Of a stretch of 64,000 nt of DNA, positions 7,483-60,611 are shown piece by piece. The stretch's first letter is position 1. Each line of letters starts with the position of its first letter. Origin of the DNA: Candidatus Kaiserbacteria bacterium (GTDB lineage: Bacteria > Patescibacteriota > Minisyncoccia > Phycocordibacterales > Phycocordibacteraceae); assembly GCA_016217905.1 (NCBI GenBank), contig JACRFL010000013.1, forward strand, positions 3,184 to 67,183, read 5' to 3'. The position numbers were made by a program, and so were the translations under genes. Under the pieces are notes generated by a model. It saw only the letters and a list, made by a program, of their open reading frames with translations, had not been told where the DNA came from and ran no database searches.

Positions 7483-10224
7483 TTAATAATTCACCTCGAT
7501 CTTCCCCTTATTAGTCGTAAGATCGATGACAGCTAATCCCGGTAAGATTTTCTTGATCTCTCTTTCACTCTTATCTTCTTCGCTCTTTACCTCTTCCTCA
7601 ATCCTTGTCACGTTCTTCTTCGCATCGTAATGACCCTCGATCTTCAGAGTGCCCACTGTTGTTTTTTCTTCAAGCTCTTTAATGGCTTCGGTTTTGTCTG
7701 TGGACCACTCATATTTTAACATCGTCTTAGGGAGCAGTTCCGCAGATATGCCGCTGTATCGGAGCTCTTGGATTTCCAATTTGAGTTCGTGTTTTCCTTG
7801 ATTGAGTTTCTTGAAGACGATCTGCAGTGTGTTGCCGGCTTCGTCGGCAATGGTGGTGCTCGTGGCTGTTGTTAGGACAGTGGTACTGGAGAGATTATCA
7901 GTCCCGATAATCTTAAATTTTTGCGATGCCGGATCGAAAGTCAGGACTGCTTCCGGCGGTGTGATGTCGAACACAATCGTCTTTCCGATTTCCGACTTGA
8001 ACGAGAAGTCGGTCGTGCCATTCCCATCATAGTCGAGAAGAAGAGGTGAGGCGTTTTGGAGGGTGCCGTCGATAAATGTCATAGTCGCTTTGGTGCTTGT
8101 TGCAGACGGGATGGCGGAGAGGGTGCTTGAGGCGATAATGGTATTGCTCCCGTCTATTTCTTGCATATCAAGCGTGAATGAGCCTGTGGCGTAGCCGTCA
8201 AGGTTGAGGGTGAGAGGAGTGTTCTTGGGAACGGTGATCACTTGAACTTCGCCGTAGCGCTTAAAGCGGCCGCCGGGGATGGTGGAAGTGGCAGCATTAA
8301 CGACGTTGCCGAGGTTATCGGTGGCAGAGAGATTGAGAGGCGAGTGGAGAAGGAAGCGGAGACGTTTGTCGGCAACTGCGTCGGTGGCAGGTTGGGTGGT
8401 GAAAATAAATGCCAGTGGTGTTGTTGAGGTGGAATTGGTGAGAATGTTTTGAACCAGCGTGCGGAGTTCGGGGATTTCGAGGATGTCGGCGTGCTTGCGC
8501 GGGACATTTCCATTAAGCCACCATTTATTATAATCCTCCAAATTCACCCAGTACTTCCCCGCTGTCGAAGCAGTCGTTGTCCACAGTGCGCTCGGAACGA
8601 GTACCGTGCCATCTCCTTCCACAACCTCTTTGGGGCTGTAGGTGATTGCCGGAGAGACGGTGCAGGTGCGCACATCTGACATATCACTGCAATACGTTTT
8701 CCTCCCTTCCTGGTATTCAATCGTCGCAAGGGTATCCTCTCCCCACCCGGCGATTTCGTAGAGCTGCACTCCCTGCGGAGGCGCCCACGTATCAAGAGCA
8801 TTATGAACCGCTTCCGCTTTGGAAAGAAGTACCGCATTCCCTACACTCGGGTAGATGAGGTCGCTTGGTGATGATGAAGCGAGACGTCACGCGTCGGCAA
8901 TGAAGTTTTTAAGTTGCGCTCCGTCATGAATCGTACTGCCATAACGCGCGCGGAATGCGGCGAGAAAATCTGAATCATCAAACTTCACGACCGGATTATC
9001 GACATAGGTGAAATAGTTTGCCGACGGGAGAAGGTTGTACGCACTTGGCATATTTGCTGTAAGCGTGCGAGCGGTTTCGGGAGAAAGGAAAACAGAAAGC
9101 CAATCCTTGGGCAATCCCTGTTCGTATCCGTGAAGAATCGCGCTAATCGCTTGCGGCGTTCCCGCCTGCGGCACGGCAATAAAAATGATCTTGTCGATGA
9201 GTTTGGCGGCTTCCGTATCGACGAGCTTCTGGATAAGCGCTTTGGTCATGAGTCCGCCGTTACTGTGCGCGACGATGGTCACCTTGCCCGTCTTCGAGCT
9301 TTTAGCCAGTCGGCGGAGCTCTTGACTGATATAGGGCGACGAAGTCGCCCTAAGGTCGCCGGAATAGTAGATGCGGCCGTCGGGAATGGGAACGGGCACC
9401 ACCAGACTCGTGGTAACGACGTGCCCGGATCCATCGTAGGCGGTGATGGTAATTTTAATTGAGGCGGCGATACTGAGAGCGTTCGACGGACTGTCGTTAA
9501 GAATAAATGGCACACGAGTGAATGAGCCATCGACCGAGGAAGCGATCGCTGTTGTGAGCAAATTTTTGCCATAGTCAATTCCACCGCTGGAACCAAAAAT
9601 CGGATTCCCTAGTGCGTCCCATAACGTTTCCCTGATCTGATATATGGTTAAAACGCTACCGGTGCCGTCCGATAACCCGCTCAAATACATAACGTCGCCT
9701 TTTTGGGGCGGCACGACTGAGAATGAAATGTCAGTGAGCGAAATCGTCGGCGGAACGTTGTCGATTATTATCTTCGTGCTACCCGTGGCAACATTCCCCA
9801 CCGCGTCAGTGGCTATCACCGAGATGGTCTTAAGACCATCGGGAACATCCGCACCGATAGTTAGCGGCCAGAATTTAAAAAAATAATCCGGGTAATAATC
9901 GGCACCATTGATATAAAAATGATACGGATTATTTCCCCCCGATAAAGGCGTAGTGGTCGGGCTTAAGAAACCTATCTGTGAAAGATCGGCTGAGATGGTC
10001 GGTACCCCTTGCCAGCTTTGCACGTTAATTGTAATCTGCTGGTTCGCGTCACCCGCTTTAAGTGTGGTTTGATACATTCCGTATCCCAAAGTCGAAATCA
10101 TCGGCAGGTCTCCAATTCTGACTTGAGCCACGTACAGTGGTGAACTCGCCTGAACTAAGGACGGAAAAATAAAAAACACGAGCGAAAAGAAAAACGGCCA
10201 AAAAACTTGTGCACGGGTGTGCAT
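7483..10224 (-). CDS. Giant secreted alpha/beta-hydrolase (lipase/PGAP1-like) domain protein; ORFs 8887-10224 and 7483-8769 are joined in frame across a TGA at 8887-8889
   Basis: N-terminal signal peptide (MHTRAQVFWPFFFSLVFFIFPSLVQASS). Lipase-type nucleophile elbow VTIVAHSNGGLMTKAL. The frame is continuous from the TGA to the downstream ORF (…FIADA*RLASSSPSDLIYPSVGNAVLL…GVQLYEIAGW…) with no independent ATG or RBS for the second ORF. Atypically low GC. Confidence 0.55.
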
Positions 10225-10273: not shown

Positions 10274-11965
10274 ATGACAAAAGACGAATTGAAAAACGCG
10301 CTTGCGGGTGTCCTGCAAGGGGAAGTATCGAATGATGCGGTGGCGCTTGAGAAAGCGAGCCGCGACACCTCCCTCTTCGAGCGAATGCCGAAGCTGGTAG
10401 TGTATCCAAAAGATGCCAAGGACGTGAGCGCGGCGGTGAGAGAGGTAGCCCGCGCCCGCTCCGCGGGCGCGGATGTATCGCTTGCGGCGCGCGCGGGCGG
10501 GACCGATATGTCGGGCGGCCCCTTGACCACTAGCATCGTGGTTTCCTTCACCAAACACATGAATCATGTACTCGAGGTTTCCTCCAACTTGGAGGCCCGG
10601 CCTCCAAGTGAAGGATATGCGGTGACGGAACCGGGGGTTTATTATAGGGATTTTGAAAAGGCGACGCTTGAAAAAGGCTTCATACTTCCCTCTTATCCCG
10701 CCAGCCGCGAGATAGCCGCCATGGGCGGCATCGTCGCGAACAATTCCGGCGGCGAGCGCACGCTCAAGTACGGCCAGACGGAGCGGTACGTCGAGGAACT
10801 GGAGGTCGTGCTCTCTGACGGTTCGCAAGTTACGTTCAAAGCGTTGACACCTGCGGAATTGGAGGAAAAAAAGAAACTTCAGACGCTTGAAGGCGCCATC
10901 TACCGCGAGATGGACGCGCTTATCACCGACAATGCCGGGCTCATCGAGGGGCGCCGGCCGCGCGTGTCGAAGAATTCCGCCGGCTACGCGCTCTGGAGCG
11001 TACTTGATGCGAAAACCGGCACCTTCAATCTCGCGAAGCTGATCTGCGGCTCCCAGGGGACGCTCGCCCTCTGGACGAAGGCGGAGCTCTCCCTCGTGAA
11101 GCCGAAAGGGCACCGCGCGATGCTCGTCGCCTTCCTCTACGACCTTTCCGACCTCCCCGAAATAGTAAAGCGCGTGCTCGCGCAGGGCCCGGAATCTTTC
11201 GAATCTTATGACGACCACACCTTCACGCTTGCGGTGAAATTCATTCCCGAGATGCTTTCGCAGATGGGCTTGTTTAAGGCCGCGCGGCTCGGCATCGACT
11301 TCATCAGCGAAGCGGCAATGGTCGCCACCGGCGGCGTGCCGAAGCTCATCTTGATGGCGGAATTCGCCGAGGACACTATCGAGGAAGCCGATCGGAAGGC
11401 GCTTCTCGCGAAGGAAGCGCTCGCCGACCTTCATCTTCATACCAAAATAGAGAAGGATGAGAAAGAGTCGGAGAAGTATTGGATCGTCCGACGCGAGAGC
11501 TTCTCGCTCCTGCGCAAGAACGTTCACGGGCTCCACACCGCGCCTTTCATCGACGATTTCGTCGTTCCGCCTTCGAGCTATCCCGACTTCCTGCCGAAAC
11601 TGAACGCGCTTCTCGAGGAATACTCATCGCACTTCATCTACACGATCGCGGGACACATCGGCAACGGCAACTTCCACATCATTCCGCTCATGGATCTCAC
11701 GAAGGAGGAGAACCGACAAGTCATCCTCGACCTTGCGCCCCGAGTCTACGAACTCGTCACCCGAGAGGGTGGCACGACGACCGGCGAGCACAACGACGGC
11801 ATCATCCGCACGCCGTACCTCAAGCTGGTTTTCGGCGCGGAAATGGTCGCGCTCTTCGAGCGGACGAAAAAAATCTTCGATCCTTTGAATATTTTCAACC
11901 CCGGGAAGAAAGTCGGCGGCACGTTTGCTGACATCGAGCGGGACATGATTAAGACGGCACCGTAA
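10274..11965 (+). CDS. FAD-linked oxidase (GlcD / D-lactate dehydrogenase-like, PCMH-type FAD-binding domain) carrying an in-frame palindromic insertion
   Basis: FAD-binding PCMH-type N-terminal domain and FAD-oxidase C-terminal domain (HGLHTAPFID, GEHNDGIIRTPYL). ATG at 10274 (MTKDELKNAL) is preferred over the tracker start 10217. Confidence 0.75.
   Translation: MTKDELKNALAGVLQGEVSNDAVALEKASRDTSLFERMPKLVVYPKDAKDVSAAVREVARARSAGADVSLAARAGGTDMSGGPLTTSIVVSFTKHMNHVLEVSSNLEARPPSEGYAVTEPGVYYRDFEKATLEKGFILPSYPASREIAAMGGIVANNSGGERTLKYGQTERYVEELEVVLSDGSQVTFKALTPAELEEKKKLQTLEGAIYREMDALITDNAGLIEGRRPRVSKNSAGYALWSVLDAKTGTFNLAKLICGSQGTLALWTKAELSLVKPKGHRAMLVAFLYDLSDLPEIVKRVLAQGPESFESYDDHTFTLAVKFIPEMLSQMGLFKAARLGIDFISEAAMVATGGVPKLILMAEFAEDTIEEADRKALLAKEALADLHLHTKIEKDEKESEKYWIVRRESFSLLRKNVHGLHTAPFIDDFVVPPSSYPDFLPKLNALLEEYSSHFIYTIAGHIGNGNFHIIPLMDLTKEENRQVILDLAPRVYELVTREGGTTTGEHNDGIIRTPYLKLVFGAEMVALFERTKKIFDPLNIFNPGKKVGGTFADIERDMIKTAP
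10584..10610. repeat. Palindromic element family A copy (CCAACTTGGAGGCCCGGCCTCCAAGTG), in frame inside the FAD-oxidase CDS
   Basis: Stem of 10 bp (ACTTGGAGGC / GCCTCCAAGT) with a 3-nt loop. Encodes SNLEARPPSE. The same sequence recurs at 38450 and 42379. Confidence 0.8.
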
Positions 11966-14137: not shown

Positions 14138-16135
14138 TTATTCGGCCGGGGTCGCCTCCGTCGGAGCGCTCTCGACAACTGCCGGAGCGCTCTCCGCCAC
14201 CACTGCCGCCGGCTCCGCTGGAGCGACTGCGGGCTCGGGGATGGCTGGCTCGACCGGCGTTTCCACGGCCGCTTCCGGCTCCGGAGAGAGAATGTCCTCT
14301 TCACGTGTGACGGCCGGCTCGACCGCCGCCGGCTGATCGGGAGCGGCCGTCTCCGCGGGAGCGGTCTCTTGAGACGTTCCCTCTGTCGAGATAGTCGTTT
14401 CAGACGCCACGATCTCGGTCTCCTCGGACGCACCTTCCTCGACCGGCAGCGGCGCCACGACGTTCTCCGGCCCGATGAAGAGGGGGAACGGATCATAGAT
14501 TCGGCCGCTCACGCTGCCAGAATTGAGCATCGGATTTTCCGGACCGATGGCGACGAGATGGATCCAGATGTAGCCGAGGAATCCGGACGGCACCGTCCAG
14601 GTAAACGCGCCGTCGTTTCCAGTAGTTTCGACTATCGTGTGCGTCGTGTCACCCAGACTTATTTTTCCGTCGTGGTTTACGTCCTTCACGTAGTAGATGC
14701 CGATGTCGAGGTCGCCGTCGGGGCCGTTGTTATTCGTCGCCGTCCACTTGATCTCGTAACTGTGCGTCCAGTACCACGTGTACGAGCCTCCCTCGTCCGG
14801 GTAGACGAGATCGATCGAAGGCGGCACGAGTTCTTTCCAATCGGAGGGCGCGTCGGTGTCGTAACCGGAAGGTACTCGAGCAAGGACGTTGCCCTCGGCG
14901 ACATTTGCCGCCCCGGGATCCCAGACGTTCGGATTGTAATTCGTCCATCCGGTGTCGGGGGTGCCCCAGTTCATCTGGTCGACGATAATCCTGTCGGGAC
15001 GTTTGAGGACAAGCATGTCGGCGTCGTTATCCAAACCGCCCCCGATTTTCGAATGTATGTTGATTTCGGTCACCTCGCTCGGCAGATACCAGTACGCGGG
15101 CAGGCCGCTCGAAACGGTCGTTGAGGTGGCGGTGGTTGACGTGGCAACGATGACCGCATATTTCTGCGCGGGAATGAGGAGTGTCGTCGGCAGGGTGTCA
15201 CACGAGGTGTTGTCGCAAATCTGCCATCCGGAAATATCCAAAGGCACGTTTGTCTGATTGTAGATCTCCACCCATTCGTTCGTACCCTCCGCACCGCGCT
15301 CCGGCGTTTTCACGTTGTAGTAGATCTTGTTGATCCGGAATCCCCACGAAGCGAGATGGTTTTTTACTTTTTCCGTATCGTTAAATCCGCCACCCTCGTA
15401 GCTCGGGTAGTCGTGCCGCGTTTGCCAGCCGTTGTAATCGATGTCGAAGTCGCAGGTGCGGTTTTGGAGATTGCTGGTCCCCGCCGTGTAGGCGAATTCC
15501 CACGGGTCGAGCGCGGTTGTCGTGGCGGTGAGGAGCCCCGTAAGAGGACCGTGATACATCTGGGTGCCCCCGCGCGTCGCGGTAACGTCAAGCCCCGAGC
15601 AGAAATCGGCATCGCCGGTAAAGTTGGTCGAGGTGGCGAAGTATTGAAACGGATTGCTCGCTTGCGGGTCGATCGCAACCGTCTTTTTCGTAACATCTCC
15701 GGGCGGCATCGACACGGCCGTACTCGTCGCCTGCCAGCCGGAAGTTGTCAGCGAGAAATCGACCGAACCCGCCCGGAAGGCATTCTCGGTCGAGCTCTCG
15801 ATATCGTTGTAGTATCCCCTTGTACTGCCGAGGCCGGTGATGCCGACGCTGTTAAGGCCGATCATGAGCGTGACGGCGAGCGCTTTAAGCGACAGCCGCG
15901 GCGTCGCCCTTATAAAAAACGGAGAGAGGACGCTCTTGCGCCTGTTCGCCCGCGCCGCGCGCGGCGCGCACGCGGCGCGCGGGCGCAGATCGAGCACATG
16001 CGCAGACGACGCGACGCGACGCGCCTTCCTCCTGGCGACCCTTCTCACCGGCACGGAAACACGCGCAGCGACAGTCGCTTTTTCTTTTTTCCGGGGAGTC
16101 TTCTTTATCGCTCCCGTTTTAATATGTACCGCCAT
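14138..16135 (-). CDS. Lamin-tail-domain (LTD) protein with SipW-cognate-like signal region and Pro/Glu/Ala-rich C-terminal tail (start uncertain: 16135 or internal MIGLNS)
   Basis: N-terminal K/R-rich segment then TM (LKALAVTLMIGLNSVGITGLG). This is followed by GYYNDIESSTENAFRAGSVDFSLT, resembling the TasA/camelysin SipW-cognate motif. LTD signature GTNEWVEIYNQTNVPLDISGWQI ... IPAQKYAVIVA. C-terminal low-complexity PEPEAAVETPVEPAIPEPAVAPAEPAAV. Confidence 0.65.
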   Translation of the reverse strand: MAVHIKTGAIKKTPRKKEKATVAARVSVPVRRVARRKARRVASSAHVLDLRPRAACAPRAARANRRKSVLSPFFIRATPRLSLKALAVTLMIGLNSVGITGLGSTRGYYNDIESSTENAFRAGSVDFSLTTSGWQATSTAVSMPPGDVTKKTVAIDPQASNPFQYFATSTNFTGDADFCSGLDVTATRGGTQMYHGPLTGLLTATTTALDPWEFAYTAGTSNLQNRTCDFDIDYNGWQTRHDYPSYEGGGFNDTEKVKNHLASWGFRINKIYYNVKTPERGAEGTNEWVEIYNQTNVPLDISGWQICDNTSCDTLPTTLLIPAQKYAVIVATSTTATSTTVSSGLPAYWYLPSEVTEINIHSKIGGGLDNDADMLVLKRPDRIIVDQMNWGTPDTGWTNYNPNVWDPGAANVAEGNVLARVPSGYDTDAPSDWKELVPPSIDLVYPDEGGSYTWYWTHSYEIKWTATNNNGPDGDLDIGIYYVKDVNHDGKISLGDTTHTIVETTGNDGAFTWTVPSGFLGYIWIHLVAIGPENPMLNSGSVSGRIYDPFPLFIGPENVVAPLPVEEGASEETEIVASETTISTEGTSQETAPAETAAPDQPAAVEPAVTREEDILSPEPEAAVETPVEPAIPEPAVAPAEPAAVVAESAPAVVESAPTEATPAE

Positions 16136-19106: not shown

Positions 19107-19299
19107 AAGAACAAGAAATGCAATGCAATCATGGAGGCCGGACCTCCGCTAGAGACGGGCGACACTATCCCCACCCACACTTGCGCCTCCAGGACATTTC
19201 TGGCATACTGCGGGCACTCGCAGAGTATTCGAGCTTCGCTCGGCCGCTTGCGGCCGCAAGTGTTCAGTTTCGGCGAGGTTAACCGGTTAGACCCACCAC

Positions 19300-19650
19300 A
19301 TGGATAATCAGCAGTCAGTTCAGGGGAACAAGCTTTACGTAGGCGGAATCCCCTACCGCTCGACAGAAGACGATCTCAAGAAGACCTTTAGCGAGGCCGG
19401 CACGGTCGTCTCCGCGAGCATCATCAGCGACCGCATGACGGGCCGCTCGAGGGGCTTCGGCTTCGTCGAGATGGCTACCGAGGCGGAAGCGCAGGCGGCT
19501 ATCGACCGCTGGGACGGCAAGGAGATGGACGGGCGCACGCTCTCGGTCTCTTTCGCACGCCCGCAGGGCGATCGTCCCCCGCGCCGCGAAGGCGGCTTCG
19601 GCGGCGGCGATCGCGGAGGCAACGGCGGCTATGGCCGCGGCGGATATTAA
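19300..19650 (+). CDS. Glycine-rich RNA-binding protein with RRM domain
   Basis: RNP-2 LYVGGIP and RNP-1 RGFGFVEM. C-terminal RGG/GGY-rich tail. Confidence 0.85.
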   Translation: MDNQQSVQGNKLYVGGIPYRSTEDDLKKTFSEAGTVVSASIISDRMTGRSRGFGFVEMATEAEAQAAIDRWDGKEMDGRTLSVSFARPQGDRPPRREGGFGGGDRGGNGGYGRGGY

Positions 19651-19697: not shown

Positions 19698-19916
19698 ACC
19701 CCGTTCATCCTCTCGATGGGAATGAGCCTCGGTTTTATAGGTGGTCTTAGGTAGCGAACAATAGTTCGCATGTAACGGACCGGTAAAAGTGTTAAGGTTC
19801 TTCCCGCGTGAGAACGAACTCTCTATAGTCTCATCGATACATTTCAAATGTCAAGCAAAATCTGAGGAAAAAACAGTGCAGAAGCTGTGCATATCTCTGT
19901 ATACTACGTGCATATC

Positions 19917-20669
19917 ATGACTCGCGACGAGAAGTGGCTCTTGGAGGAAAAATATCATGGAAACGCGACAGTCGCATATGCGGCGGATGCGAAGCGGCTC
20001 GCCTCCGGCGAGCCGCTCGGCTATGTGATCGGCTGGCAGCCGTTTCTCGGCCTCAACATCTATCTCGATTCGCACCCTCTCATCCCCCGCCCCGAGACGG
20101 AGTGGTGGACGGAGCAACTTCTAACCAACTTGGAAGCGAAGCTTCCAATTGGAAGCTTCGCTTCCAAGTTTAAGTTCCTCGACCTGTGCGCCGGATCCGG
20201 TGCCATCGGCTGTGCCGCGCTCGCGAGACTGCCGGACGCCCGGGTATATTTCGGCGAGATCGATCCGGCGCATACCGCGACCATTGTGAAAAACATTCGA
20301 GAAAATAATCTCGACGAACCACGCGCGGACATCCTCACCGGTGATCTCTTCGGACCGTTCGCCGGTTTGCGCTTCGACGTCATCGCGGCGAACCCGCCCT
20401 ACGTTTCCGCAGGCCGCGCGCTCCCCTCAAGCGTCGCGGGCTACGAGCCGGCTACGGCCCTCTTCGCCGGAGAGGATGGCCTCGATATCATCCGCCGCAT
20501 CGCGAAAGAGCTTTCGAAATATCTTAAAGAGAGCGGTACCGCGTGGATCGAGTGCGACAGCGCGCACGCGGCAGCCGCGTGCGCGCTCTTCGCGGAGCAG
20601 GGATTCGACGCACAGATACGCACCGACCAATACGGCGACTCGCGCGTTCTCGTAGTATCATTCCCCTGA
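19917..20669 (+). CDS. prmC: Release-factor N5-glutamine methyltransferase (HemK/PrmC family) carrying an in-frame 44-nt perfect palindrome
   Basis: NPPY catalytic motif (IAANPPYV), SAM-binding LDLCAGSGAIG. Start MTRDEKW at 19917. Confidence 0.75.
   Translation: MTRDEKWLLEEKYHGNATVAYAADAKRLASGEPLGYVIGWQPFLGLNIYLDSHPLIPRPETEWWTEQLLTNLEAKLPIGSFASKFKFLDLCAGSGAIGCAALARLPDARVYFGEIDPAHTATIVKNIRENNLDEPRADILTGDLFGPFAGLRFDVIAANPPYVSAGRALPSSVAGYEPATALFAGEDGLDIIRRIAKELSKYLKESGTAWIECDSAHAAAACALFAEQGFDAQIRTDQYGDSRVLVVSFP
20127..20170. repeat. 44-nt perfect palindrome (AACTTGGAAGCGAAGCTTCCAA | TTGGAAGCTTCGCTTCCAAGTT) in frame inside prmC; variant of family A
   Basis: Perfect 22+22 inverted repeat. Encodes NLEAKLPIGSFASKF between the conserved EQLL and LDLCAGSG blocks, where E. 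coli PrmC has a shorter linker. Confidence 0.8.
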
Positions 20670-21498: not shown

Positions 21499-22734
21499 AT
21501 GGCTGAGCCGCTCTCAACCGACCCGTACAAGGGTGTCCGCGACTTCTACCCCGCCGAGTGGGAGAGGGTGGGCGCGATGTTCAGCGCAATTCGGGATACG
21601 CTTCGCGCCTGGGGATACGAAGAATACAACGCCTCCCCGCTTGAGCGCACCGAACTCTACGAGGCGAAGACGTCAGAAGAGATAGTGAACGAGCAGACCT
21701 ACACCTTCACCGACCGCGGCGGTCGAAGCGTGACGCTCCGCCCCGAGATGACTCCCACGCTTGCGCGCATGGTCGCCGCCAAACGCCGCGAACTCACCTT
21801 TCCGCTGCGTTGGTTTTCCATCGGCAACCGCTTCCGCTACGAGCGTCCGCAGAAAGGCCGCCTCCGCGAGTTCTACCAGGCGGACATCGACCTCGTCGGT
21901 CTTCCCGAGGGCGAGGCGGACATCGAAATCGTACAACTCGCCTCGGCGATACTCACTGCGTTTGGCGCTACAGAACGCGATTTTATTATTCGAGTTAACT
22001 CTCGCTCACTTCTAAACGCCGCGTGCGAAGCGGCTGGACTTACCGGCGACGCAGTCAGACAGTATCTGCGTCTTCTCGATAAGAGATCGAAAATGACTCC
22101 TGAGGCCTTCCGAGCTGCTTCAACCGCGATTACCGCAACCGATCCGCTCACGCTCATCGATTCAAAAAAAATGGATGCCTTTATCTTTACGCTCAAAGAG
22201 CGCGGCATCGGCAATATCGTCTTCGACGCCGGCATCACGCGCGGTTTTGACTATTACACCGGCATGATTTTTGAGGTATTCGATACGAATCCGACGAACC
22301 CGCGCTCGCTCTTCGGCGGCGGACGCTATGACGGCCTGGTCGCACTCTGGGGCGACGACGCCGTCCCGGCGGTCGGCTTCGCGCTCGGGGATGTTACGCT
22401 CGCCGACTTTCTTGAGACGCATTCGCTCCTACCGAAGTCAGACTTCGGTAGGCCGCAGGTGTATCTTGGCACGCCGACCGCCGGCGACATCCCCGCTGCA
22501 CAAGCATTCGCTGATACGCTGCGCAAAGAGGGCTTCCGCGTTTTCGTCAATCTCTCCGACCGCTCGCTCGGCGACCAAATAAAAGATGCCGTGAAGCGCG
22601 GCGTCCCGCTCTTCCTCGCGTATGGTGTCGACGAGGTTGCTCGCCAAACGGTCCGCATGAAGATACTCCGTACCGGCGAAGAAGCTGAACTCCCGGCGTC
22701 CGAGCTCCCCGCGCGGCTGCGCGCTGGGAGCTAG
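21499..22734 (+). CDS. hisS: Histidyl-tRNA synthetase
   Basis: Class-II aaRS motifs and HisRS-specific blocks (RPEMTPTLARMV, FRYERPQKGRLREFYQ, GGGRYDGL). Contains a 25-nt perfect palindrome in frame. Confidence 0.9.
   Translation: MAEPLSTDPYKGVRDFYPAEWERVGAMFSAIRDTLRAWGYEEYNASPLERTELYEAKTSEEIVNEQTYTFTDRGGRSVTLRPEMTPTLARMVAAKRRELTFPLRWFSIGNRFRYERPQKGRLREFYQADIDLVGLPEGEADIEIVQLASAILTAFGATERDFIIRVNSRSLLNAACEAAGLTGDAVRQYLRLLDKRSKMTPEAFRAASTAITATDPLTLIDSKKMDAFIFTLKERGIGNIVFDAGITRGFDYYTGMIFEVFDTNPTNPRSLFGGGRYDGLVALWGDDAVPAVGFALGDVTLADFLETHSLLPKSDFGRPQVYLGTPTAGDIPAAQAFADTLRKEGFRVFVNLSDRSLGDQIKDAVKRGVPLFLAYGVDEVARQTVRMKILRTGEEAELPASELPARLRAGS
22428..22452. repeat. Palindromic element family B copy (CCTACCGAAGTCAGACTTCGGTAGG) in frame inside hisS
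   Basis: Perfect 12-bp arms around a central A. Encodes LPKSDFGR. Confidence 0.8.
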
Positions 22735-26122: not shown

Positions 26123-27814
26123 CTATGCACCGAGTGCGGCGAGCCGCGCGGAAAGCTTTGCACACTGTTTTTGCATATCACCGACCAACAAGGCGTCTTC
26201 CGATGCCTCGGCCCTGCGTAGCGCCCTTACCGCTTCCTGATACGCCTCGCGGATAACCGCTTCTTCAAGGGCGCAAAGAAGCTCGTCTCCCGCCTTCTCG
26301 TCCGGATTTTCGCCGAATGTCTGTTCTGCATAGAACAGGGACGATTCCAAAAGCGCGATAGGCGGCAGTTCTTGAGCTTCGGTAATCCGACAATACTCCG
26401 ATGTGACGCGCTTCGCAAGCGGCGTATCGGGATAAGCCCGGATAACCGCAAGAAGTTGTTCCGAACGGATTTCCGATGCCGAACGGGCCGGCGGCGTTGT
26501 TTTTCGCATGCTCGCCGTATCCGTGTCGACCGTAAAATCTTTCGGCAAGCGTTTGAGCGATTCGCGCACGGCCTCGCCGGAGATCCCGAGCGCGCGGGCG
26601 GCCGCTTGTACGAAATGTTCGCGCTCCATCGGGCTCGGTATCGCGTTGATGAGCGGAAGCACGATGCTTTCGGCCAGCCGCAAGAACCGGTGAGGGTCGC
26701 GCTCCTGCTCGGCGAGAACGCCGAGAAAGAACTCTACGACCGGTTTAGCGGCGGCGACGCGCTTGCCGAATTCCGCCGCATCTTCGCTGATAAGGTCAGC
26801 CGGATCTTTTCCGAAAGGCAGTGCGACTGCCTTGACCCGAAGTCCCTGGCGAAGGGTCAGTTCGGCCGCGCGCGCCGTCGCTTTGAGTCCGGCGGGATCG
26901 GCGTCAAGAACAAGCATCACGTTCTCGCTGTAGCGCTTCATAAGACCCGCGTGACGGCCAGTGAGGGCCGTGCCCGAGAGAGCGATCGTGTTCTGGAAGC
27001 CCGCCTGGTGCGCCAAGATAACGTCTATCTGCCCTTCAACGAGCATCGCGAAGCCGCGCGTGCGAATGGCGTCTTTCGCCATATCCATACCGAACAATAC
27101 TTCGGACTTGTGGTAGAGCTCGGTCTCGGGGCTGTTGAGATACTTCGCCTGCTCGTCCGCGGAGAGCGCGCGGCCGGTGAAGCCGACCACGCGGCCGACG
27201 GCGTCGCGTATCGGGAACATCAGCCGATTGCGGAAGCGGTCGTAGTAGGTGCCCGGCTTCCCGTCGGCTTCTTTGATGAGTCCCGCGGCAAGCAATTCCT
27301 GCGTGGAGAATCCTTCCGCAGTCATCGCCTCAAGCAGCGCGCGCCATGCCTCCGGCGCATACCCGAGCCGCCAGGCGCGGATAGTTTCCTCCGTAAGACC
27401 GCGCCGCTTCGCATACGGAGCGGCGGGACTCTCGGCGAGCTTGCCCGCATACCATTCGCTCGCGCGATTCATCAGGGCGCGCAGACGCTCTTTCTTCGAT
27501 GTATCTTCTTTCCCGGCACTACCATATATGGTAGTGATTTGGACGCCAGCCTTCTCGGCAAGAATCTTGAGCGCGCCCTTGAAATCAACTCCTTCGATCT
27601 TTTCAATGAAAGAAAAACCGTCGCCGCCCTCCCCACAACCGAAGCAGTGCCACGTCCCGCGTTCGGAACTCACGTGAAAGGACGGCGTTTTCTCTTTATG
27701 GAACGGGCAGAGGCCGCGCATGGACTTTCCCGCCCGCGTGAGCTTCACATAGGGGTTGATAATCTCGACGATGGAGAGACGGTCTTTGATTTGGGCGACC
27801 GTGTCTTTCGCCAT
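26123..27814 (-). CDS. dnaG: DNA primase
   Basis: Zinc-binding CPFHKEKTPSF ... HCFGCG, TOPRIM domain (MLVEGQIDV, VLDADPAG). Confidence 0.9.
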   Translation of the reverse strand: MAKDTVAQIKDRLSIVEIINPYVKLTRAGKSMRGLCPFHKEKTPSFHVSSERGTWHCFGCGEGGDGFSFIEKIEGVDFKGALKILAEKAGVQITTIYGSAGKEDTSKKERLRALMNRASEWYAGKLAESPAAPYAKRRGLTEETIRAWRLGYAPEAWRALLEAMTAEGFSTQELLAAGLIKEADGKPGTYYDRFRNRLMFPIRDAVGRVVGFTGRALSADEQAKYLNSPETELYHKSEVLFGMDMAKDAIRTRGFAMLVEGQIDVILAHQAGFQNTIALSGTALTGRHAGLMKRYSENVMLVLDADPAGLKATARAAELTLRQGLRVKAVALPFGKDPADLISEDAAEFGKRVAAAKPVVEFFLGVLAEQERDPHRFLRLAESIVLPLINAIPSPMEREHFVQAAARALGISGEAVRESLKRLPKDFTVDTDTASMRKTTPPARSASEIRSEQLLAVIRAYPDTPLAKRVTSEYCRITEAQELPPIALLESSLFYAEQTFGENPDEKAGDELLCALEEAVIREAYQEAVRALRRAEASEDALLVGDMQKQCAKLSARLAALGA

Positions 27815-34953: not shown

Positions 34954-35622
34954 CTAACGCTTCGTGCGCCACGCATCAATCTTGGCGTGGTGGCCGGTTC
35001 GGAGAACTTTGGGAACGCGATACTTCTTACCTTTGTATAAAATTGTCTCGGGGCGGGTGTAGACGGCCGATGAGGCGATACGACGCTCCTCCACGGAGGC
35101 GTCCTTGCCGAGGACGCCCGGCAGGCGGCGCGTGACCGCATCCACGATTGCGAGCGCCGGCACTTCCCCTCCGGTATACACCGCTTCGCCGACGGCAAAT
35201 TCTTTCACCGGCGCGAACGTCTTGAGGATCTTCTTCGCGCGCTCGTCGATGCCCTCGTAGCGGCCGCAGACAAGGACGACATCCGTGTACTTTGCAAGCG
35301 CGTCTGCATACTTATTTGTGAATTGCTTCCCGCTCGGACTAAACCATATAATTAGCGGCTTTTTCATGTAGGACGTACGACGTCCTACATTCTTTTTCAA
35401 AGCTTTTTCCACGGCTTTGACGACCGGGAGTGCGGTCATCACCATCCCGGGGCCGCCGCCATACGGACGTTCATCCACCTTGCCCCACTTGTTGTCGACG
35501 AAATCACGCGGGGTCTGATACGTTACAGAAATCTTCTTCTCCTTCCGCACGCGCCCGATAATCGACGCCGAAAGATACGCGTCGCACGCTTCTTCAAACA
35601 ATGTAATCAAATGGAATTTCAC
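34954..35622 (-). CDS. trmD: tRNA (guanine37-N1)-methyltransferase
   Basis: SPOUT/TrmD blocks ERPYGGGPGMVM. Confidence 0.9.
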   Translation of the reverse strand: MKFHLITLFEEACDAYLSASIIGRVRKEKKISVTYQTPRDFVDNKWGKVDERPYGGGPGMVMTALPVVKAVEKALKKNVGRRTSYMKKPLIIWFSPSGKQFTNKYADALAKYTDVVLVCGRYEGIDERAKKILKTFAPVKEFAVGEAVYTGGEVPALAIVDAVTRRLPGVLGKDASVEERRIASSAVYTRPETILYKGKKYRVPKVLRTGHHAKIDAWRTKR

Positions 35623-38449: not shown

Positions 38450-38475
38450 ACAACTTGGAGGCCGGGCCTCCAAGT
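38450..38475. repeat. Palindromic family A copy (CAACTTGGAGGCCGGGCCTCCAAGTG) between convergent rnr and smc; probable bidirectional terminator
   Basis: Same element as at 10584 in opposite orientation (loop CGG vs CCG). Sits 2 nt after the rnr stop and 3 nt before the smc stop. Confidence 0.75.
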
Positions 38476-42378: not shown

Positions 42379-42407
42379 CCAACTTGGAGGTCCGGCCTCC
42401 AAGTTGG
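42379..42407. repeat. Palindromic family A copy (CCAACTTGGAGGTCCGGCCTCCAAGTTGG) in the rpmF-nusB spacer; terminator/attenuator-like hairpin
   Basis: 12-bp perfect arms, 5-nt loop. Confidence 0.75.
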
Positions 42408-43165: not shown

Positions 43166-43765
43166 TTATTCCCGAATGGAATCAAGATGCAGGAAGGAAC
43201 GGCGGTGGATAACGCAGGGGCCGTATTTTTCAAGTGCTTCGTAATGCGCGCGGGTACCGTAGCCCTTGTGCTTCTCAAAACCGTAGAGCGGGTACTCTGC
43301 CGACAGCCGGACCATGAGCCGGTCGCGGCTGACCTTCGCCGCAATAGAGGCGAGTGAGATAAGCGGAACGAGCTCGTCGCCGCCCACGATAGTTTCTTGC
43401 GCATATTCAGGCGGCGCCTTGAGTGCCCCGTCCAGCAGAATACGGAAGTCAGACTTCCGTACTTCTCCTACGAGAACACGTACGCCGCGGAAGAGCGCGC
43501 GACGCACGGCTGTTACGATTCCTTCCCTGTCGATTATTCCGGCGCTCTCGAACTCGACCGTAAAGCGCGCGTCGCCCAGGGCGACGCGCGCTTCGAGCAT
43601 CCGGTAAATCGCCTCCCTTTTCTTTTCTGAAAGTTTTTTCGAGTCCCTGACGCCCGGGAACTCGCCCGCCACATCGAACCCTTCCGGCATCGCGACCACG
43701 CCGACCGCCAAGGGTCCCGCCAAGGGTCCCCGCCCCGCTTCATCCACCCCGAGCAAGAATCGCAT
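43166..43765 (-). CDS. rnhB: Ribonuclease HII
   Basis: LGVDEAGRGPLAGPL catalytic N-terminus. Contains a family B palindrome in frame. Confidence 0.88.
   Translation of the reverse strand: MRFLLGVDEAGRGPLAGPLAVGVVAMPEGFDVAGEFPGVRDSKKLSEKKREAIYRMLEARVALGDARFTVEFESAGIIDREGIVTAVRRALFRGVRVLVGEVRKSDFRILLDGALKAPPEYAQETIVGGDELVPLISLASIAAKVSRDRLMVRLSAEYPLYGFEKHKGYGTRAHYEALEKYGPCVIHRRSFLHLDSIRE
43441..43461. repeat. Palindromic family B copy (TACGGAAGTCAGACTTCCGTA) in frame inside rnhB
   Basis: 10-bp arms. Encodes RKSDFR on the coding (minus) strand. Confidence 0.8.
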
Positions 43766-52298: not shown

Positions 52299-52344
52299 GA
52301 GAGCCACGCGATTTCCGGCGTTAGCCGGAAATCGCGTGGCTCTC
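52299..52344. repeat. 21-bp perfect inverted repeat straddling the sortase stop codon (GAGAGCCACGCGATTTCCGGC gtta GCCGGAAATCGCGTGGCTCTC)
   Basis: Seen directly. The right arm encodes the last seven sortase residues (ESHAISG). No T-tract follows. Confidence 0.7.
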
Positions 52345-52998
52345 AACAAAGTCTGCGGTGACAACGAACCGGTCCGTTTTCTTCCCGAAGGAGTCGCAGG
52401 TCACAAGCGTAAGCACCTTCCCCCCTGTAGAAAGCGGAATGGCCGTGTTATCGTTCGCGCTTTCTTTCGCGACGCTTTGCACCCGGTACGTATACGCCGC
52501 GCCCGAAGCGTACACGATAATCGCGTCTCCGGCAACGAGCTTCTGGATGCCGTTGAAGGTCTTGTACGCTTGATTCTTGACGACCGGCAGGTAGCTCGAG
52601 TGCCCGAAGAGAACGACATTGCCCGTCTCTCCGAGCAGGGCCGATGTCGGGTAGCGCACCGCTCCCGACAGGAGCTCTCGGTCAAGCGCATCGATTGCGG
52701 TCGTTGTCGGGTTCACGACTGCCGCCGAAAGGCCGATGGCGGAAATTTCTATCTTCGTCGGCAATTCAGAAACGACCGGTGACGCCTGCGTTCTCCGCTC
52801 CGATGTCGCGCGCGAGACGGCCGGAGACGCGGAAACGGCACCGGTCGCACGCGCTTCCGGCAAAAGATCGAGCCTGCCGAGCACGGCGATGCTTCCGAGA
52901 AACAGTGCGGCGAAAAAACAAAGAAAGCTCCACTTCCGCGCGTACGCGCGCTCCGCGGCTTCGACAAGCCCCACGATAAAATCAATAAACTTCTGCAT
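52321..52998 (-). CDS. Sortase-family transpeptidase (membrane-anchored)
   Basis: N-terminal TM. Catalytic His (VVLFGHSSY), TLxTC cysteine motif (LTLVTCDSFG), conserved Arg (RFVVTADF). Confidence 0.7.
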   Translation of the reverse strand: MQKFIDFIVGLVEAAERAYARKWSFLCFFAALFLGSIAVLGRLDLLPEARATGAVSASPAVSRATSERRTQASPVVSELPTKIEISAIGLSAAVVNPTTTAIDALDRELLSGAVRYPTSALLGETGNVVLFGHSSYLPVVKNQAYKTFNGIQKLVAGDAIIVYASGAAYTYRVQSVAKESANDNTAIPLSTGGKVLTLVTCDSFGKKTDRFVVTADFVESHAISG

Positions 52999-55991: not shown

Positions 55992-58543
<2,552 letters not shown>

Positions 58544-58579: not shown

Positions 58580-59815
58580 ATGAGTCCCGAGGCGTTTGCA
58601 TATCCGTTTCTTTTCATCGCGATATTCTTCGAGTCGTTCATCCTTGTGACGTTCCTCTCGAAGCCCGCGCGCGCTGCGCGCGCGCGTACGCCAAATACGG
58701 AAACGCCCGCGGTCGCCGTCATCGTGCCTTGCTACAATGAGGCCGCGACGGTCGCCGGCACCTGCGAGTCGCTCCTCGCGCTTGACTATCCGAAGGAGAA
58801 GCTCGAGGTCATCCTCGTCGACGACGGTTCGACCGACGGAACCACGAAAGCGATGGCGCGCTTCCGGGGTCATCCGCAGATTCGCGTCATCCGCAAGGAA
58901 AACGGCGGGAAGCATACCGCGCTCAACGCCGGCATCGCCGCGACCTCTGCGGAAATCATCGGGTGTCTCGACGCCGATTCATTCGTCGAGCCGGACGCGC
59001 TCCGTGAGATCGTACCGTGCTTCGCGAATTCGCGCGTGGCGGCGGTCACCGCCGCCATGTCGGTGCATCGCCCGAAAAACCTGCTCCAGCACATGCAGAA
59101 CGCCGAATACACTTTCGGCATCACGCTCCGCCACACGCTCGCCTCGATCAACGGCCTCTACGTCACCCCAGGACCTTTCTCGTTTTATCGACACACCACG
59201 CTCAAGGAGATTGGAGACTTCCGGTACGGCCACCAGACCGAGGACATGGAGATGGCTCTCCGCATCCAGCGGGCGGGTTATGAGATCGAGAACGCGCCAC
59301 GCGCGCGCGCGTACACGAAATCGCCGAACACCATTGCGAAACTTCTCAAGCAGCGCACCCGCTGGACGACCGGATTCTTGAGGAACATTCTCGGAGAATA
59401 TCGCTGCCTCGTGGGGAATCGCGCCCACGGCGCTCTCGGTATGCTGGTGCTCCCTACCGCACTCATCGCCATCGGCGGCGGCATTCTTACTTTTTCTGCC
59501 ACGCTTTTCAATTTTGCCCGGCACGCTATGGCCGCAGCCGAGGTCCGCGCCGGCGTTCCGCTCTCCTATACGCTCCTGATGCGCGGCCCGTTCGATTGGT
59601 TCTATCTCCCCGTGAGTTTTTTCCTGCTGCTCGGCGCGACGATGCTTGTCGCCTCGTTTTCTTTGATCGTCACCGGCAAGCGCATTTCAAAAACGCCGGG
59701 TAACCTTGTGCTCGGCATCGTCTCATATGCGTTCCTCTACGGCCTCGTCGCGCCGCTGTGGCTCCTGCGCGCCACTACCGATGTCGCGCTCGGAAAGCGC
59801 CGCCAGTGGCGCTGA
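58580..59815 (+). CDS. GT2-family processive beta-glycosyltransferase (NodC/HasA/PgaC/cellulose-synthase-like), polytopic membrane protein
   Basis: VIVPCYNE, ILVDDGSTDGT, CLDADSF, QTEDMEM, KQRTRWTTG (QxxRW). Start MSPEAFAYPFLF at 58580; the tracker start 58151 was rejected because it overlaps pheS. Confidence 0.75.
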   Translation: MSPEAFAYPFLFIAIFFESFILVTFLSKPARAARARTPNTETPAVAVIVPCYNEAATVAGTCESLLALDYPKEKLEVILVDDGSTDGTTKAMARFRGHPQIRVIRKENGGKHTALNAGIAATSAEIIGCLDADSFVEPDALREIVPCFANSRVAAVTAAMSVHRPKNLLQHMQNAEYTFGITLRHTLASINGLYVTPGPFSFYRHTTLKEIGDFRYGHQTEDMEMALRIQRAGYEIENAPRARAYTKSPNTIAKLLKQRTRWTTGFLRNILGEYRCLVGNRAHGALGMLVLPTALIAIGGGILTFSATLFNFARHAMAAAEVRAGVPLSYTLLMRGPFDWFYLPVSFFLLLGATMLVASFSLIVTGKRISKTPGNLVLGIVSYAFLYGLVAPLWLLRATTDVALGKRRQWR

Positions 59816-59822
59816 TTCTCCC

Positions 59823-60491
59823 ATGTCGCTTCTCGCCAGAAACGCTCTCATAGCCCTTGTCATCACGATCGTGCTCATCGGTACGGTCGCCTATGCACTC
59901 AGCTACCTGAACAACGCCCGCATCGCCGAACTCGCCGCCATCGAGGATCAGCTCTCAATTGACACGCTCTCTCTCGATACGCAATTCTCCCTCCTTGAAG
60001 CGGCGCCGTGCGACAGCGCCGCTTCGTCGACCGCATTTACCGGAACGCTCGCTGACTTGGGCGACCGCCTCTCCTACGCCGAAAGCCAGCTCGGTACGGA
60101 CAACCCACAGGTGGTGCGGCTGAAGCAGCACTATTCCCTGCTCGAGATACGCGACTATCTCATTACCAAGAAACTCGCCGCCGCTTGCAAGACGAAACCC
60201 ATAACCGCGCTCTATTTCTACAGCAATGCCGGCGACTGCGCCGATTGCGACCGGGCTGGCTACGCGCTTTCTTATCTGCGCGACACGTACCCGAATCTGC
60301 GCGTCTATTCGTTCGACTACAATCTCGACCTTGGCGCTTTGGAAACGTTCATCGCGCTCGAGGGCGTGCGGCGGTCGTTGCCGGCTTTCGTCATTAACGA
60401 GAAACCGTTCTACGGCTTTACCTCGCTCGAAGAGCTTGAAAAACAATTCCCGAAAGGGGTGTTCGCAACGACAACCGGTTCCACGCTTTGA
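59823..60491 (+). CDS. Membrane-anchored hypothetical protein with CxxC (CADC) motif downstream of the GT2 synthase
   Basis: N-terminal TM (ALIALVITIVLIGTVAYAL). No family recognised. Confidence 0.45.
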   Translation: MSLLARNALIALVITIVLIGTVAYALSYLNNARIAELAAIEDQLSIDTLSLDTQFSLLEAAPCDSAASSTAFTGTLADLGDRLSYAESQLGTDNPQVVRLKQHYSLLEIRDYLITKKLAAACKTKPITALYFYSNAGDCADCDRAGYALSYLRDTYPNLRVYSFDYNLDLGALETFIALEGVRRSLPAFVINEKPFYGFTSLEELEKQFPKGVFATTTGSTL

Positions 60492-60569
60492 GTCTCAATT
60501 GTACTCCGCTAGAATCTAGTTTAGCAAAAATCTCGACCGACTTCGCACGCGCCGAGGCCGTATGCGCTT

Positions 60570-60607
60570 GCCCCAGAGCCCGCGCGTACTCGCGCGGGCT
60601 CTGGGGC
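60570..60607. terminator. 17-bp perfect hairpin (GCCCCAGAGCCCGCGCG tact CGCGCGGGCTCTGGGGC) between convergent genes
   Basis: Seen directly. Lies 5 nt from the stop of the minus-strand gene. No clear T-tract. Confidence 0.45.
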
Positions 60608-60611
60608 AGAA

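Follow-up and report, generated by a model that had tools for sequence, protein, structure and literature searches.

In this work, we analysed a 64,000-nucleotide (64-kb) stretch of a Candidatus Kaiserbacteria genome (contig JACRFL010000013.1; hereinafter, the window), focusing on a 44-nt perfect palindrome located in frame within prmC, a gene of the HemK/PrmC family of N5-glutamine methyltransferases. The data make it likely that the palindrome resembles a REP doublet forming a hairpin (REPIN), i.e., that it consists of two abutted and oppositely oriented repetitive extragenic palindromic (REP) hairpins of 23–25 nt, members of a superfamily cognate to REP-associated tyrosine transposases (RAYTs) and dispersed in Patescibacteria. 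Direct observations that bear on this reading concern the anatomy and the family of the element, its linkage to RAYT genes in other genomes, its dispersal in both orientations and all frames, its presence or absence at an orthologous coding site, and the occupancy of insertion hot spots. The palindrome belongs to a known class of selfish DNA, and no new biology is needed to account for it.

The palindrome is an inverted doublet of a short hairpin unit

The palindrome is composed of AACTTGGAAGCGAAGCTTCCAA directly followed by TTGGAAGCTTCGCTTCCAAGTT, a flawless 22+22-nt inverted repeat with zero spacer, just as stated in the preliminary description of the window. Each 22-nt arm also folds by itself into an 8-bp stem with a 3-nt loop, which is GAA in the first hairpin (TTGGAAGC-GAA-GCTTCCAA) and TTC in the second one (TTGGAAGC-TTC-GCTTCCAA). 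The 44-mer is thus an inverted doublet, where one unit (ACTTGGAAGCGAAGCTTCCAAGT; sequence of the single-stranded hairpin oligonucleotide, CCACTTGGAAGCGAAGCTTCCAAGTGG) is followed by its own reverse complement. The symmetry is flawless because the same unit is present twice in opposite orientation with the complementary loops GAA and TTC, so that maintenance by an unknown mechanism, as proposed earlier, need not be invoked. The centre of the palindrome, AATT, is one base off AAGT, the common centre of the doublets found elsewhere.

The palindrome had been judged highly non-random, and the statistics bear this out. The 22-nt arm found no further match across the window even with up to three mismatches allowed, and none of 100 dinucleotide shuffles gave two arm matches. 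Folded as single-stranded DNA, the palindrome reached −24.1 kcal/mol (z = −9.4), which none of 200 shuffles equalled. The REP unit is free of stop codons in all six frames. The lack of stops on the reverse strand of the palindrome, earlier regarded as potentially meaningful, is a trivial consequence of the symmetry, the two strands being identical in sequence.

The host gene and the predicted place of the element in PrmC

The open reading frame (ORF) of prmC spans positions 19887–20669, and the ATG at 19917 is the likely start. Its product scores 128 bits with TIGR00536, above the cut-off of 115.5, and 185 bits with the PrmC model TIGR03534, below the cut-off of 199; an NCBI protein from Candidatus Kaiserbacteria that bears the name PrmC matches it with 100% identity. 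The palindrome is translated in frame, and the peptide stretch covering the palindrome-encoded segment reads LLTNLEAKLPIGSFASKFK. In the AlphaFold2 model of the protein (predicted local distance difference test, pLDDT, 86.8), residues 59–75 form a helix, 76–81 a loop and 86–89 the strand beta1, while the confidence drops to pLDDT ~72 over the palindrome-encoded residues 71–85. As modelled, the element would encode the end of the helix and the connector leading into the Rossmann fold, which in the sequence lies well ahead of the NPPY motif. The segment from the helix (...ELALELIRKYGIKT) to beta1 (VADIGTGSG) is 6–7 residues longer than in T. maritima HemK (1NV8/1SG9), and the connector is only 4 residues longer than the 21-aa plain linker of the outgroup orthologues.

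Two more palindromes are present in prmC, at window positions 19993–20017 and 20557–20589 (11- and 14–15-bp stems). They encode the conserved peptides KRLAsGEPL and DSAHAAAACAL, respectively, and many orthologues, down to 43% protein identity, also have palindromes there, for which either codon bias or selection on structure may account.

Dispersal of the REP unit

A metagenome scan with the pattern TTGGAAGCNNNGCTTCCAA, forced to GGAAGC stems, comprised at least 120 stretches; the counts given below refer to the matches listed, and the taxonomy of most contigs is inferred only from the names on their transposase homologues. At least 139 hairpin sites were found at unrelated loci of 120 contigs ranging in G+C from 25% to 76%. 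The consensus emerging from these sites is N-ACTTGGAAGC-NNN-GCTTCCAAGT-N′, in which the end bases complement each other and the loop varies. The flanks are paired as NAC...GTN′ (CAC/GTG at 35 of the 139 sites, AAC/GTT at 18, TAC/GTA at 16, GAC/GTC at 8), and GTAG occurs only in the TAC/GTA subset, being paired there. The 8-mer arms were met 278 times in hairpins vs. 58 times solo, about 21 solo occurrences being expected by chance.

The hairpin was inside ORFs of at least 200 aa, in all three frames (HLEAxLPS, TWKxxFQV, LGSxASK), at 55 of the 139 sites. As this share (about 40%) is well below the very high coding fraction expected of compact genomes, intragenic copies appear to be tolerated, not preferred. 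Twelve of the listed sites are doublets, and ten of these lie in long ORFs vs. 45 of the 127 singlets (p = 0.002; small sample); doublets were also found in the relatives L081, L084 and L001 (L-numbers are our designations of genomes and contigs). The doublet of L160, a contig with 37% G+C, matches the window palindrome at 41 of 44 positions, the only differences being the two terminal bases and the centre (AAGT vs. AATT), and ready-made similar doublets are present at unrelated loci of L152, L163 and L086.

According to the preliminary description, the palindrome shares its CAACTTGGA(A/G)G termini with a hairpin family of the window, family A, at 10585, 38451 and 42380; this likeness is real. 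Sixteen units taken from the window, its relatives and REP-flanked transposase loci align gapless, with the six foot pairs ACTTGG/CCAAGT invariant and three head pairs covarying on both sides, one of them in all four Watson–Crick combinations; the REP unit has a stem of 8–11 bp and a loop of 3 nt. Family A and the palindrome form one superfamily with a constant foot and a covarying head, and its REP consensus can be written as N-ACTTGG-(4–5 variable pairs)-loop-(partners)-CCAAGT-N′.

The hairpin flanks genes for a RAYT-type transposase

The contigs that bear several hairpin copies share one gene, which in L116 (146–841) and L137 (927–1577) encodes proteins of 216–231 aa. Both proteins pass the gathering score of 23 for Pfam Y1_Tnp (PF01797) with 30.4 and 27.9 bits, and REP_Tyr_transpos (NF047646) is the best and only NCBIfam family match of the transposase. 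In at least nine metagenome contigs (L116, L137, L148, L189, L186, L200, L145, L096 and L174), the hairpin brackets the gene within 15–65 nt on both sides, and one or two hairpin copies are usually present inside the gene as well. Such a hairpin-flanked transposase gene is the classical REPtron arrangement. It was also found in a contig of a Kaiserbacteria metagenome-assembled genome (L206, NCBI), where a 222-aa ORF is bracketed by REPs and contains two further copies. The window unit is matched at 23/23 positions by the upstream REP of this ORF, AACCACTTGGAAGCGAAGCTTCCAAGTGGTT, and by both internal copies, the REPs with this match being those at L206:2149–2179, 2366–2388 and 2645–2679; the downstream REP is a GGTGGTT variant resembling the unit of L001.

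The transposase family comprises 4910 proteins at E ≤ 1e-10, whose source names are either transposase of Patescibacteria, Kaiserbacteria or Yonathbacteria, or "REP element-mobilizing transposase RayT". The HUH (NPNHYHF) and Tyr (SAYVNLN) motifs are invariant in 35 homologues (H84, H86, Y144). PDB sequence searches with the RAYT, as a single sequence or a profile, gave no match. The AlphaFold2 model of the RAYT (pLDDT 74.9; predicted template modelling score, pTM, 0.77) had 4ER8_A as its top Foldseek match (E 2.7e-4, probability 1.0, target TM-score 0.57). This structure, which shows the REP-associated transposase of E. coli in complex with a REP hairpin, was the only PDB match at E ≤ 1e-3, with the IS608 and ISDra2 TnpA proteins coming next. 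The RAYTs flanked by the REP superfamily constitute a distinct clade (HUH/Y1, IS200-like).

Within the transposase ORF, the REP hairpin occupies two sites encoding QLG[GS]xxSKL (L206:2366–2388 and 2645–2679; L116:324 and 627). The second site, past NLNDRVH, is kept in 35/35 RAYT homologues, where its residues vary as compensated stems would (LGSEASKL, LGGEASKL, LGGETSKL, LGSSTPKL). Both REP-encoded segments have low confidence in the AlphaFold2 model. These copies may act in cis or serve self-regulation. In L003, a Parcubacteria/Kaiserbacteria-like genome, the minus strand encodes a second, diverged RAYT with 38% identity (8924–9346, within 8632–9409), only about 650 nt upstream of prmC. The REP family that goes with it, ATACAAGGTGGAACCTTGTAT, is a separate one and comprises a perfect doublet of 45 nt; L001 has a fragment at the same place (14–166).

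The prmC connector of relatives holds diverse hairpin elements

Genomic prmC loci were fetched (80 in total), and the connector DNA was extracted. The 53 PrmC homologues (~60–72% identity) align well except at the connector, where they have from 0 to ~90 extra residues. The outgroup orthologues have a plain connector of 17–21 aa (HLKERFGDTPFRL) with no unusual structure, and most connectors of the Kaiserbacteria-like clade contain a strong hairpin, the kinds being very diverse: ACTTGG...CCAAGT doublets (type A), a 27-nt hairpin AATGTAGGACGTCGGACGTCCTACATT (type B), or one of three long structured elements of ~90–200 nt (types C, D and E). A check of the linker length had been proposed earlier as a way to judge a mobile origin, and its outcome is twofold: some relatives have a plain, non-palindromic linker of 14–21 aa, and most hold other palindromic elements. 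Every connector insert is in frame and stop-free. As compared with the neighbouring sequence, the median folding z of the connector is −2.25 in the clade vs. −0.1 in the outgroups.

In their DNA, the closest type A relatives repeat the architecture of the window palindrome. At the same prmC junction, L081 bears a 42-nt perfect palindrome (ACTTGGAAGTCCGACTTCCAA directly followed by TTGGAAGTCGGACTTCCAAGT) with all four arms changed coordinately. The connector of L082 contains a direct, not inverted, doublet of ACTTGGAGGCCGGGCCTCCAAGT, which is the intergenic hairpin at window position 38453. Two independent assemblies, L084 and L085, have the prmC unit of the window twice with a 12-nt spacer, and L001 has a doublet of the GGCGGTT variant whose spacer is homologous to that of L084. 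Because the type A relatives share architecture and junction, the palindrome is tied to family A and an assembly artefact is ruled out. Since this junction holds doublets of the superfamily even in relatives whose protein identity is only ~70%, the prmC site has long been occupied, with turnover or concerted change. The mobile origin related to family A suggested in the preliminary description is thus upheld by the dispersed hairpin found beside RAYT-type genes, while its "recent insertion" is not established. A neighbour-joining tree of PrmC is star-like and poorly resolved, and the element types are patchy on it; with such a tree, one old insertion followed by change in place is inseparable from repeated replacement. 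In 44 orthologues of hisS, a syntenic neighbour, no indel hot spot with a hairpin was seen. The prmC connector, which in relatives holds type A or other hairpin elements, is a permissive hot spot.

The long elements of the prmC connector deserve a separate description. One of them, of 90–130 nt, was found in L003 (10187–10312), L005, L010, L013, L016, L018, L022, L029 (733–888) and L033. It has a long variable outer stem and a 4-bp hairpin with a conserved GACG loop and a covarying stem; its core is TTTTCAGCAGAAAA (peptide FSAEKYA). It also occurs outside prmC, both in frame and between genes (L019:14300–14420; L023:4390–4530 and 15120–15270). The second one, with the core CGGTAGTAAGACTTGGCCTAGCGGCCCGGAGCGCGACCG (peptide SFSVVRLGLAARSATE), lies in the sense orientation in L008, L014 (3157–3288), L032 (2204–2335), L030 and L039, and is reversed in L028 (10040–10171) relative to L032, the neighbour of L028 on a rough neighbour-joining tree; two genomes also have it directly behind an orthologous gene, just past the stop codon (L006:14689, L032:6179). 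The third one has the core GGTCTGGCCGACCGAAGGGAGGAGAYCCGAGGACC (peptide WSGRPKGGDPRTF; L006:10187–10288, L007:3834–3935, L021:5295–5402), and its outer stem is formed by the flanking prmC codons, the downstream ones being complementary to the upstream helix codons. When seven loci with such long elements were scanned permissively against Rfam, none of the linkers matched a credible family. Two contigs, L059 and L066, start exactly past the prmC connector (query residues 83–86 onward), which suggests that assemblies break at these connector repeats.

Insertion sites in other genes

The family A copy at 10587–10609 is not intergenic: it lies in frame within a FAD-linked oxidase gene (LEVSSNLEARPPSEGYAVTEPGV). 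Thirteen oxidase orthologues read LEVG---------DGYAVTEPGV here, so that the window copy is a clean 27-nt (9-codon) insertion. REP variants occupy the same oxidase site in L039 and L024, and other genomes have other inserts there. The dnaG gene (26123–27814) is plain in the window, and relatives carry doublets of other hairpin families in it. Another hairpin makes a 7–8-aa insertion in a large ORF of L030. In trmD of the window, a type B hairpin is present in frame at 35366–35390 (ATGTAGGACGTACGACGTCCTACAT), and the peptide it specifies, NVGRRTSYM, is also encoded by the prmC connector in L034. A small perfect hairpin in hisS (22428–22452) is not associated with an indel relative to the orthologues. 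With elements in prmC, the oxidase gene, dnaG and trmD and no such site in hisS, the elements accumulate at a limited set of permissive connectors.

The dnaG hot spot is the connector past the primase motif EAVRESLKRLPK (L018:18364, L028, L034, L029:9280, L030:13615), where different doublets encode the peptides QGRTLNSNIQGSTL, SGNVKHSHPEVGMFNIP and GKVRLSQPNVGESDFP. The trmD hairpin is one of a GTAG-containing family, whose members occupy the prmC connector of L034, L031 and L025. Besides the hisS hairpin, further small perfect hairpins lie in frame in pheT (57547–57567 and 56182–56206) and rnhB (43441–43461 and 43563–43593).

We also considered ordinary terminators as an identity of family A and rejected it: genuine terminators of these genomes are GC stems flanked by A/T tracts, and the oxidase copy, taken for intergenic, proved to lie in a gene.

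Table 1. Features of the window discussed in the text
Feature	Position	Strand	Remarks
HemK/PrmC-family N5-glutamine methyltransferase gene	19917–20669	+	Element encodes residues 71–85
44-nt perfect palindrome, inverted (head-to-head) REP-type doublet, probably REPIN-like	20127–20170	+	In-frame peptide NLEAKLPIGSFASK(F)
Unit 1, AAC-TTGGAAGC-GAA-GCTTCCAA	20127–20148	+	8-bp stem, GAA loop
Unit 2, TTGGAAGC-TTC-GCTTCCAA-GTT	20149–20170	+	Reverse complement of unit 1, loop flipped
REP singlet, ACTTGGAGGCC-C-GGCCTCCAAGT	10587–10609	+	In frame in the FAD-linked oxidase gene (SSNLEARPPSE)
REP singlet, ACTTGGAGGCC-G-GGCCTCCAAGT	38453–38475		Between convergent gene ends; unit doubled in the L082 prmC linker
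REP singlet, CCAACTTGGAGGTCCGGCCTCCAAGTTGG	42379–42407		Between convergent gene ends

Other structured stretches of the window

Two long perfect hairpins with 4-nt loops, unrelated to the REP sequence, were found at 52299–52344 (21-bp stem) and 60569–60608 (18-bp stem). The former overlaps the 3′ end of the ORF 52321–52998 (minus strand), and the latter comes after the ORF 59706–60491. Upstream of the gene for an RNA recognition motif (RRM) protein (19300–19650), a non-coding block at 19181–19279, which surfaced as a spurious tblastn match (...LAEYSSFARP..ASVQFRRG), is conserved in at least six relatives and may represent a 5′ leader or a small RNA.

Discussion

By analogy with RAYTs and the IS200/IS605 enzymes, the transposase would bind the folded hairpin on single-stranded DNA, cut beside its foot and move or copy a unit or a doublet to new sites, the doublets (REPINs) probably being the favoured mobile form. 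This chemistry, as well as the neutrality of the element for PrmC and a RAYT gene in the source genome, are what we infer. In a gene-dense Kaiserbacteria genome, copies would survive only where they are harmless, that is, in the gaps between convergent genes and in the surface connectors of proteins. Because the unit is stop-free in six frames and the insert keeps the frame, in-frame copies are translatable, and the prmC copy would be translated as a 15-residue segment of the helix-to-beta1 connector rich in Leu, Glu, Ala, Lys, Gly and Ser. Hairpin-templated correction may add to the symmetry; if so, it would account as well for the way in which the four arms change together among relatives.

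The most serious alternative dispenses with repeated arrivals: a single ancestral REP singlet would have been inserted in prmC, and intrastrand template switching (quasipalindrome correction or inverted duplication) would then have produced the doublets on the spot and preserved their symmetry, with no transposition of a ready-made doublet. It is consistent with the left and right junctions common to all type A relatives, with the coordinated changes of the four arms (GAAGC/GCTTC in the window and L084, GAAGT/ACTTC in L081, GGAGGCC in L082, GGCGGTT in L001), with the direct orientation of the L082 doublet, and with the homology of the L001 and L084 spacers. However, near-identical ready-made doublets are present at unrelated loci (L160 with its 41/44 matches; L152, L163 and L086), and the window unit equals the REPs flanking a RAYT gene of another genome, which drift in place does not predict. 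We therefore regard this explanation as unlikely, though it retains more weight than any other alternative.

Selection of the hairpin in cis for the needs of prmC, as an mRNA or DNA structure serving as an attenuator or terminator, an inter-domain ribosome pause, or an RNase site, is very improbable in our view. The clade linker is more structured than its neighbours (see the z values above), the occupancy of the site is widespread, and a simple scan flagged unit 2 followed by GTTTAAGTTC as a weak match to the terminator consensus. Yet the elements at the site have neither sequence nor shape in common and range in size from 27 to ~200 nt, one type is reversed in L028, and the close orthologues L011, L017, L012, L004 and L002 have no comparable hairpin in the connector. 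The same hairpin is met at hundreds of unrelated loci and lies in either orientation at many of them, dnaG and the oxidase gene have hot spots of a similar kind, and genuine terminators here are the A/T-tract-flanked GC stems. The RNA structure within the prmC mRNA, which the preliminary description had considered, thus finds little room.

An assembly or amplification artefact, i.e., a chimeric inverted junction, is still less credible: perfect palindromes may result from chimeras of multiple displacement amplification or from assembly graph errors, and the contigs L059 and L066 do break exactly at the prmC linker, but the frame and the flanking prmC sequence are normal on both sides, and equivalent doublets occupy the same site in independent assemblies (L081, L082, L084 and L085). 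Finally, enrichment of a DNA-uptake-like sequence or a protein-operator motif by uptake or binding instead of transposition can practically be dismissed, even though Patescibacteria are thought to depend on DNA uptake and the motif is conserved across contigs of widely different G+C content: the arms are almost always paired, which led us to reject the uptake sequence, the density is low, and the motif is tightly linked to RAYT genes.

Several points weigh against the interpretation of the palindrome as a RAYT-mobilized REP doublet. The transposases score only 27.4 and 33.1 bits with NF047646, far below its curated cut-off of 80, no RAYT homologue was found within the 64-kb window, and the unpaired GTAG/CGTC tag of classical REPs is absent from the 139 listed sites. 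The superfamily is sparse in the window (4 loci per 64 kb, ~1 per 16 kb), where the exact GGAAGC unit is confined to prmC. The metagenome scan was restricted to GGAAGC stems, and the covariation set of 16 units was hand-picked from hairpins, so that it describes the family and is no proof of selection. The type A relatives all share one junction, which fits one old insertion with concerted change in place, and neither a transposition event nor presence/absence within a population was observed at prmC.

REPs, their dimers, RAYTs and intragenic REPs have already been described (PMC3733652); what deserves attention here is mainly the host phylum, the repeated occupation of protein connectors in essential genes, and the conserved REP copies within the transposase gene. 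REP–RAYT systems have been studied almost only in Proteobacteria, and our data indicate that they are widespread in the ultra-small Patescibacteria, where housekeeping proteins commonly include segments translated from the elements. This matters for annotation, since the variable "linkers" of proteins of the Candidate Phyla Radiation (CPR) may be repeat-encoded, for assembly, with contigs breaking at element sites, and for aligning the proteins of CPR marker genes and building phylogenies from them. A further benefit is a compact natural system for studying the coexistence of a hairpin transposon with coding sequence.

More tentatively, and with doubts of our own, we suggest that Patescibacteria might carry a phylum-wide REP–RAYT system whose repeats are specialised for life inside genes. 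This would be in line with the stop-free foot (in six frames), the preference of doublets for long ORFs, the reoccupied connectors of prmC, dnaG and the FAD oxidase, and the two copies with covarying stems conserved in the transposase ORF, which hint at self-regulation or a cis-acting end. If true, such a system would keep supplying new linker variants to essential proteins in genomes that have almost no intergenic space.

Comparison with known systems

Quasipalindrome template-switch correction is a known route from imperfect to perfect inverted repeats, and it could help keep the four arms identical. It is, however, a mutational process and not an element family, and it leaves the identity to copies in other genomes unexplained. 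Double-hairpin elements of chytrid (Allomyces) mitochondria and the GC clusters of yeast mitochondria are likewise tiny and mobile, fold into a pair of neighbouring hairpins and can sit in frame within the coding regions of compact genomes without harm; they differ in being organellar and unrelated in sequence, and to our knowledge no transposase has been assigned to them.

Rickettsia palindromic elements (RPEs) are found in frame in unrelated housekeeping genes and are translated as extra surface segments (PMC10969869). The element described here resembles them in its in-frame insertion into unrelated genes (prmC, the FAD oxidase gene and the RAYT gene itself). On length and tag, to which our comparison is confined, the two differ: RPEs are ~100–150 bp long and carry a CGTC tag (PMC3733652), whereas the unit here has ~25 nt and the doublet 44 nt. 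Moreover, RPEs are Rickettsia-specific and have no dedicated transposase, unlike the present element with its cognate RAYT.

The closest likeness is to the REP/REPIN and RAYT systems, such as E. coli TnpA-REP (4ER8), the Pseudomonas REPINs and the bacterial interspersed mosaic elements (BIMEs). Patescibacteria are not among the host phyla listed in PMC3733652, and in the library searched, no paper was found that connects RAYTs or REPINs with Patescibacteria or the CPR. The differences are that the unpaired GTAG/CGTC tag is lacking here, that the doublet partners abut (spacer 0–12 nt), that REP copies are conserved inside the transposase ORF, and that the RAYT is too diverged for the NCBIfam cut-off or a sequence match to 4ER8. 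The features in common are the short hairpin unit, the inverted doublets forming one long hairpin, the copies flanking an HUH/Y1 transposase gene (REPtron), and the singlets between convergent genes, a location usual for REPs (PMC3733652). Intragenic REPs are known as well, and two Xanthomonas species have different REPs at the same recB site (PMC3733652).

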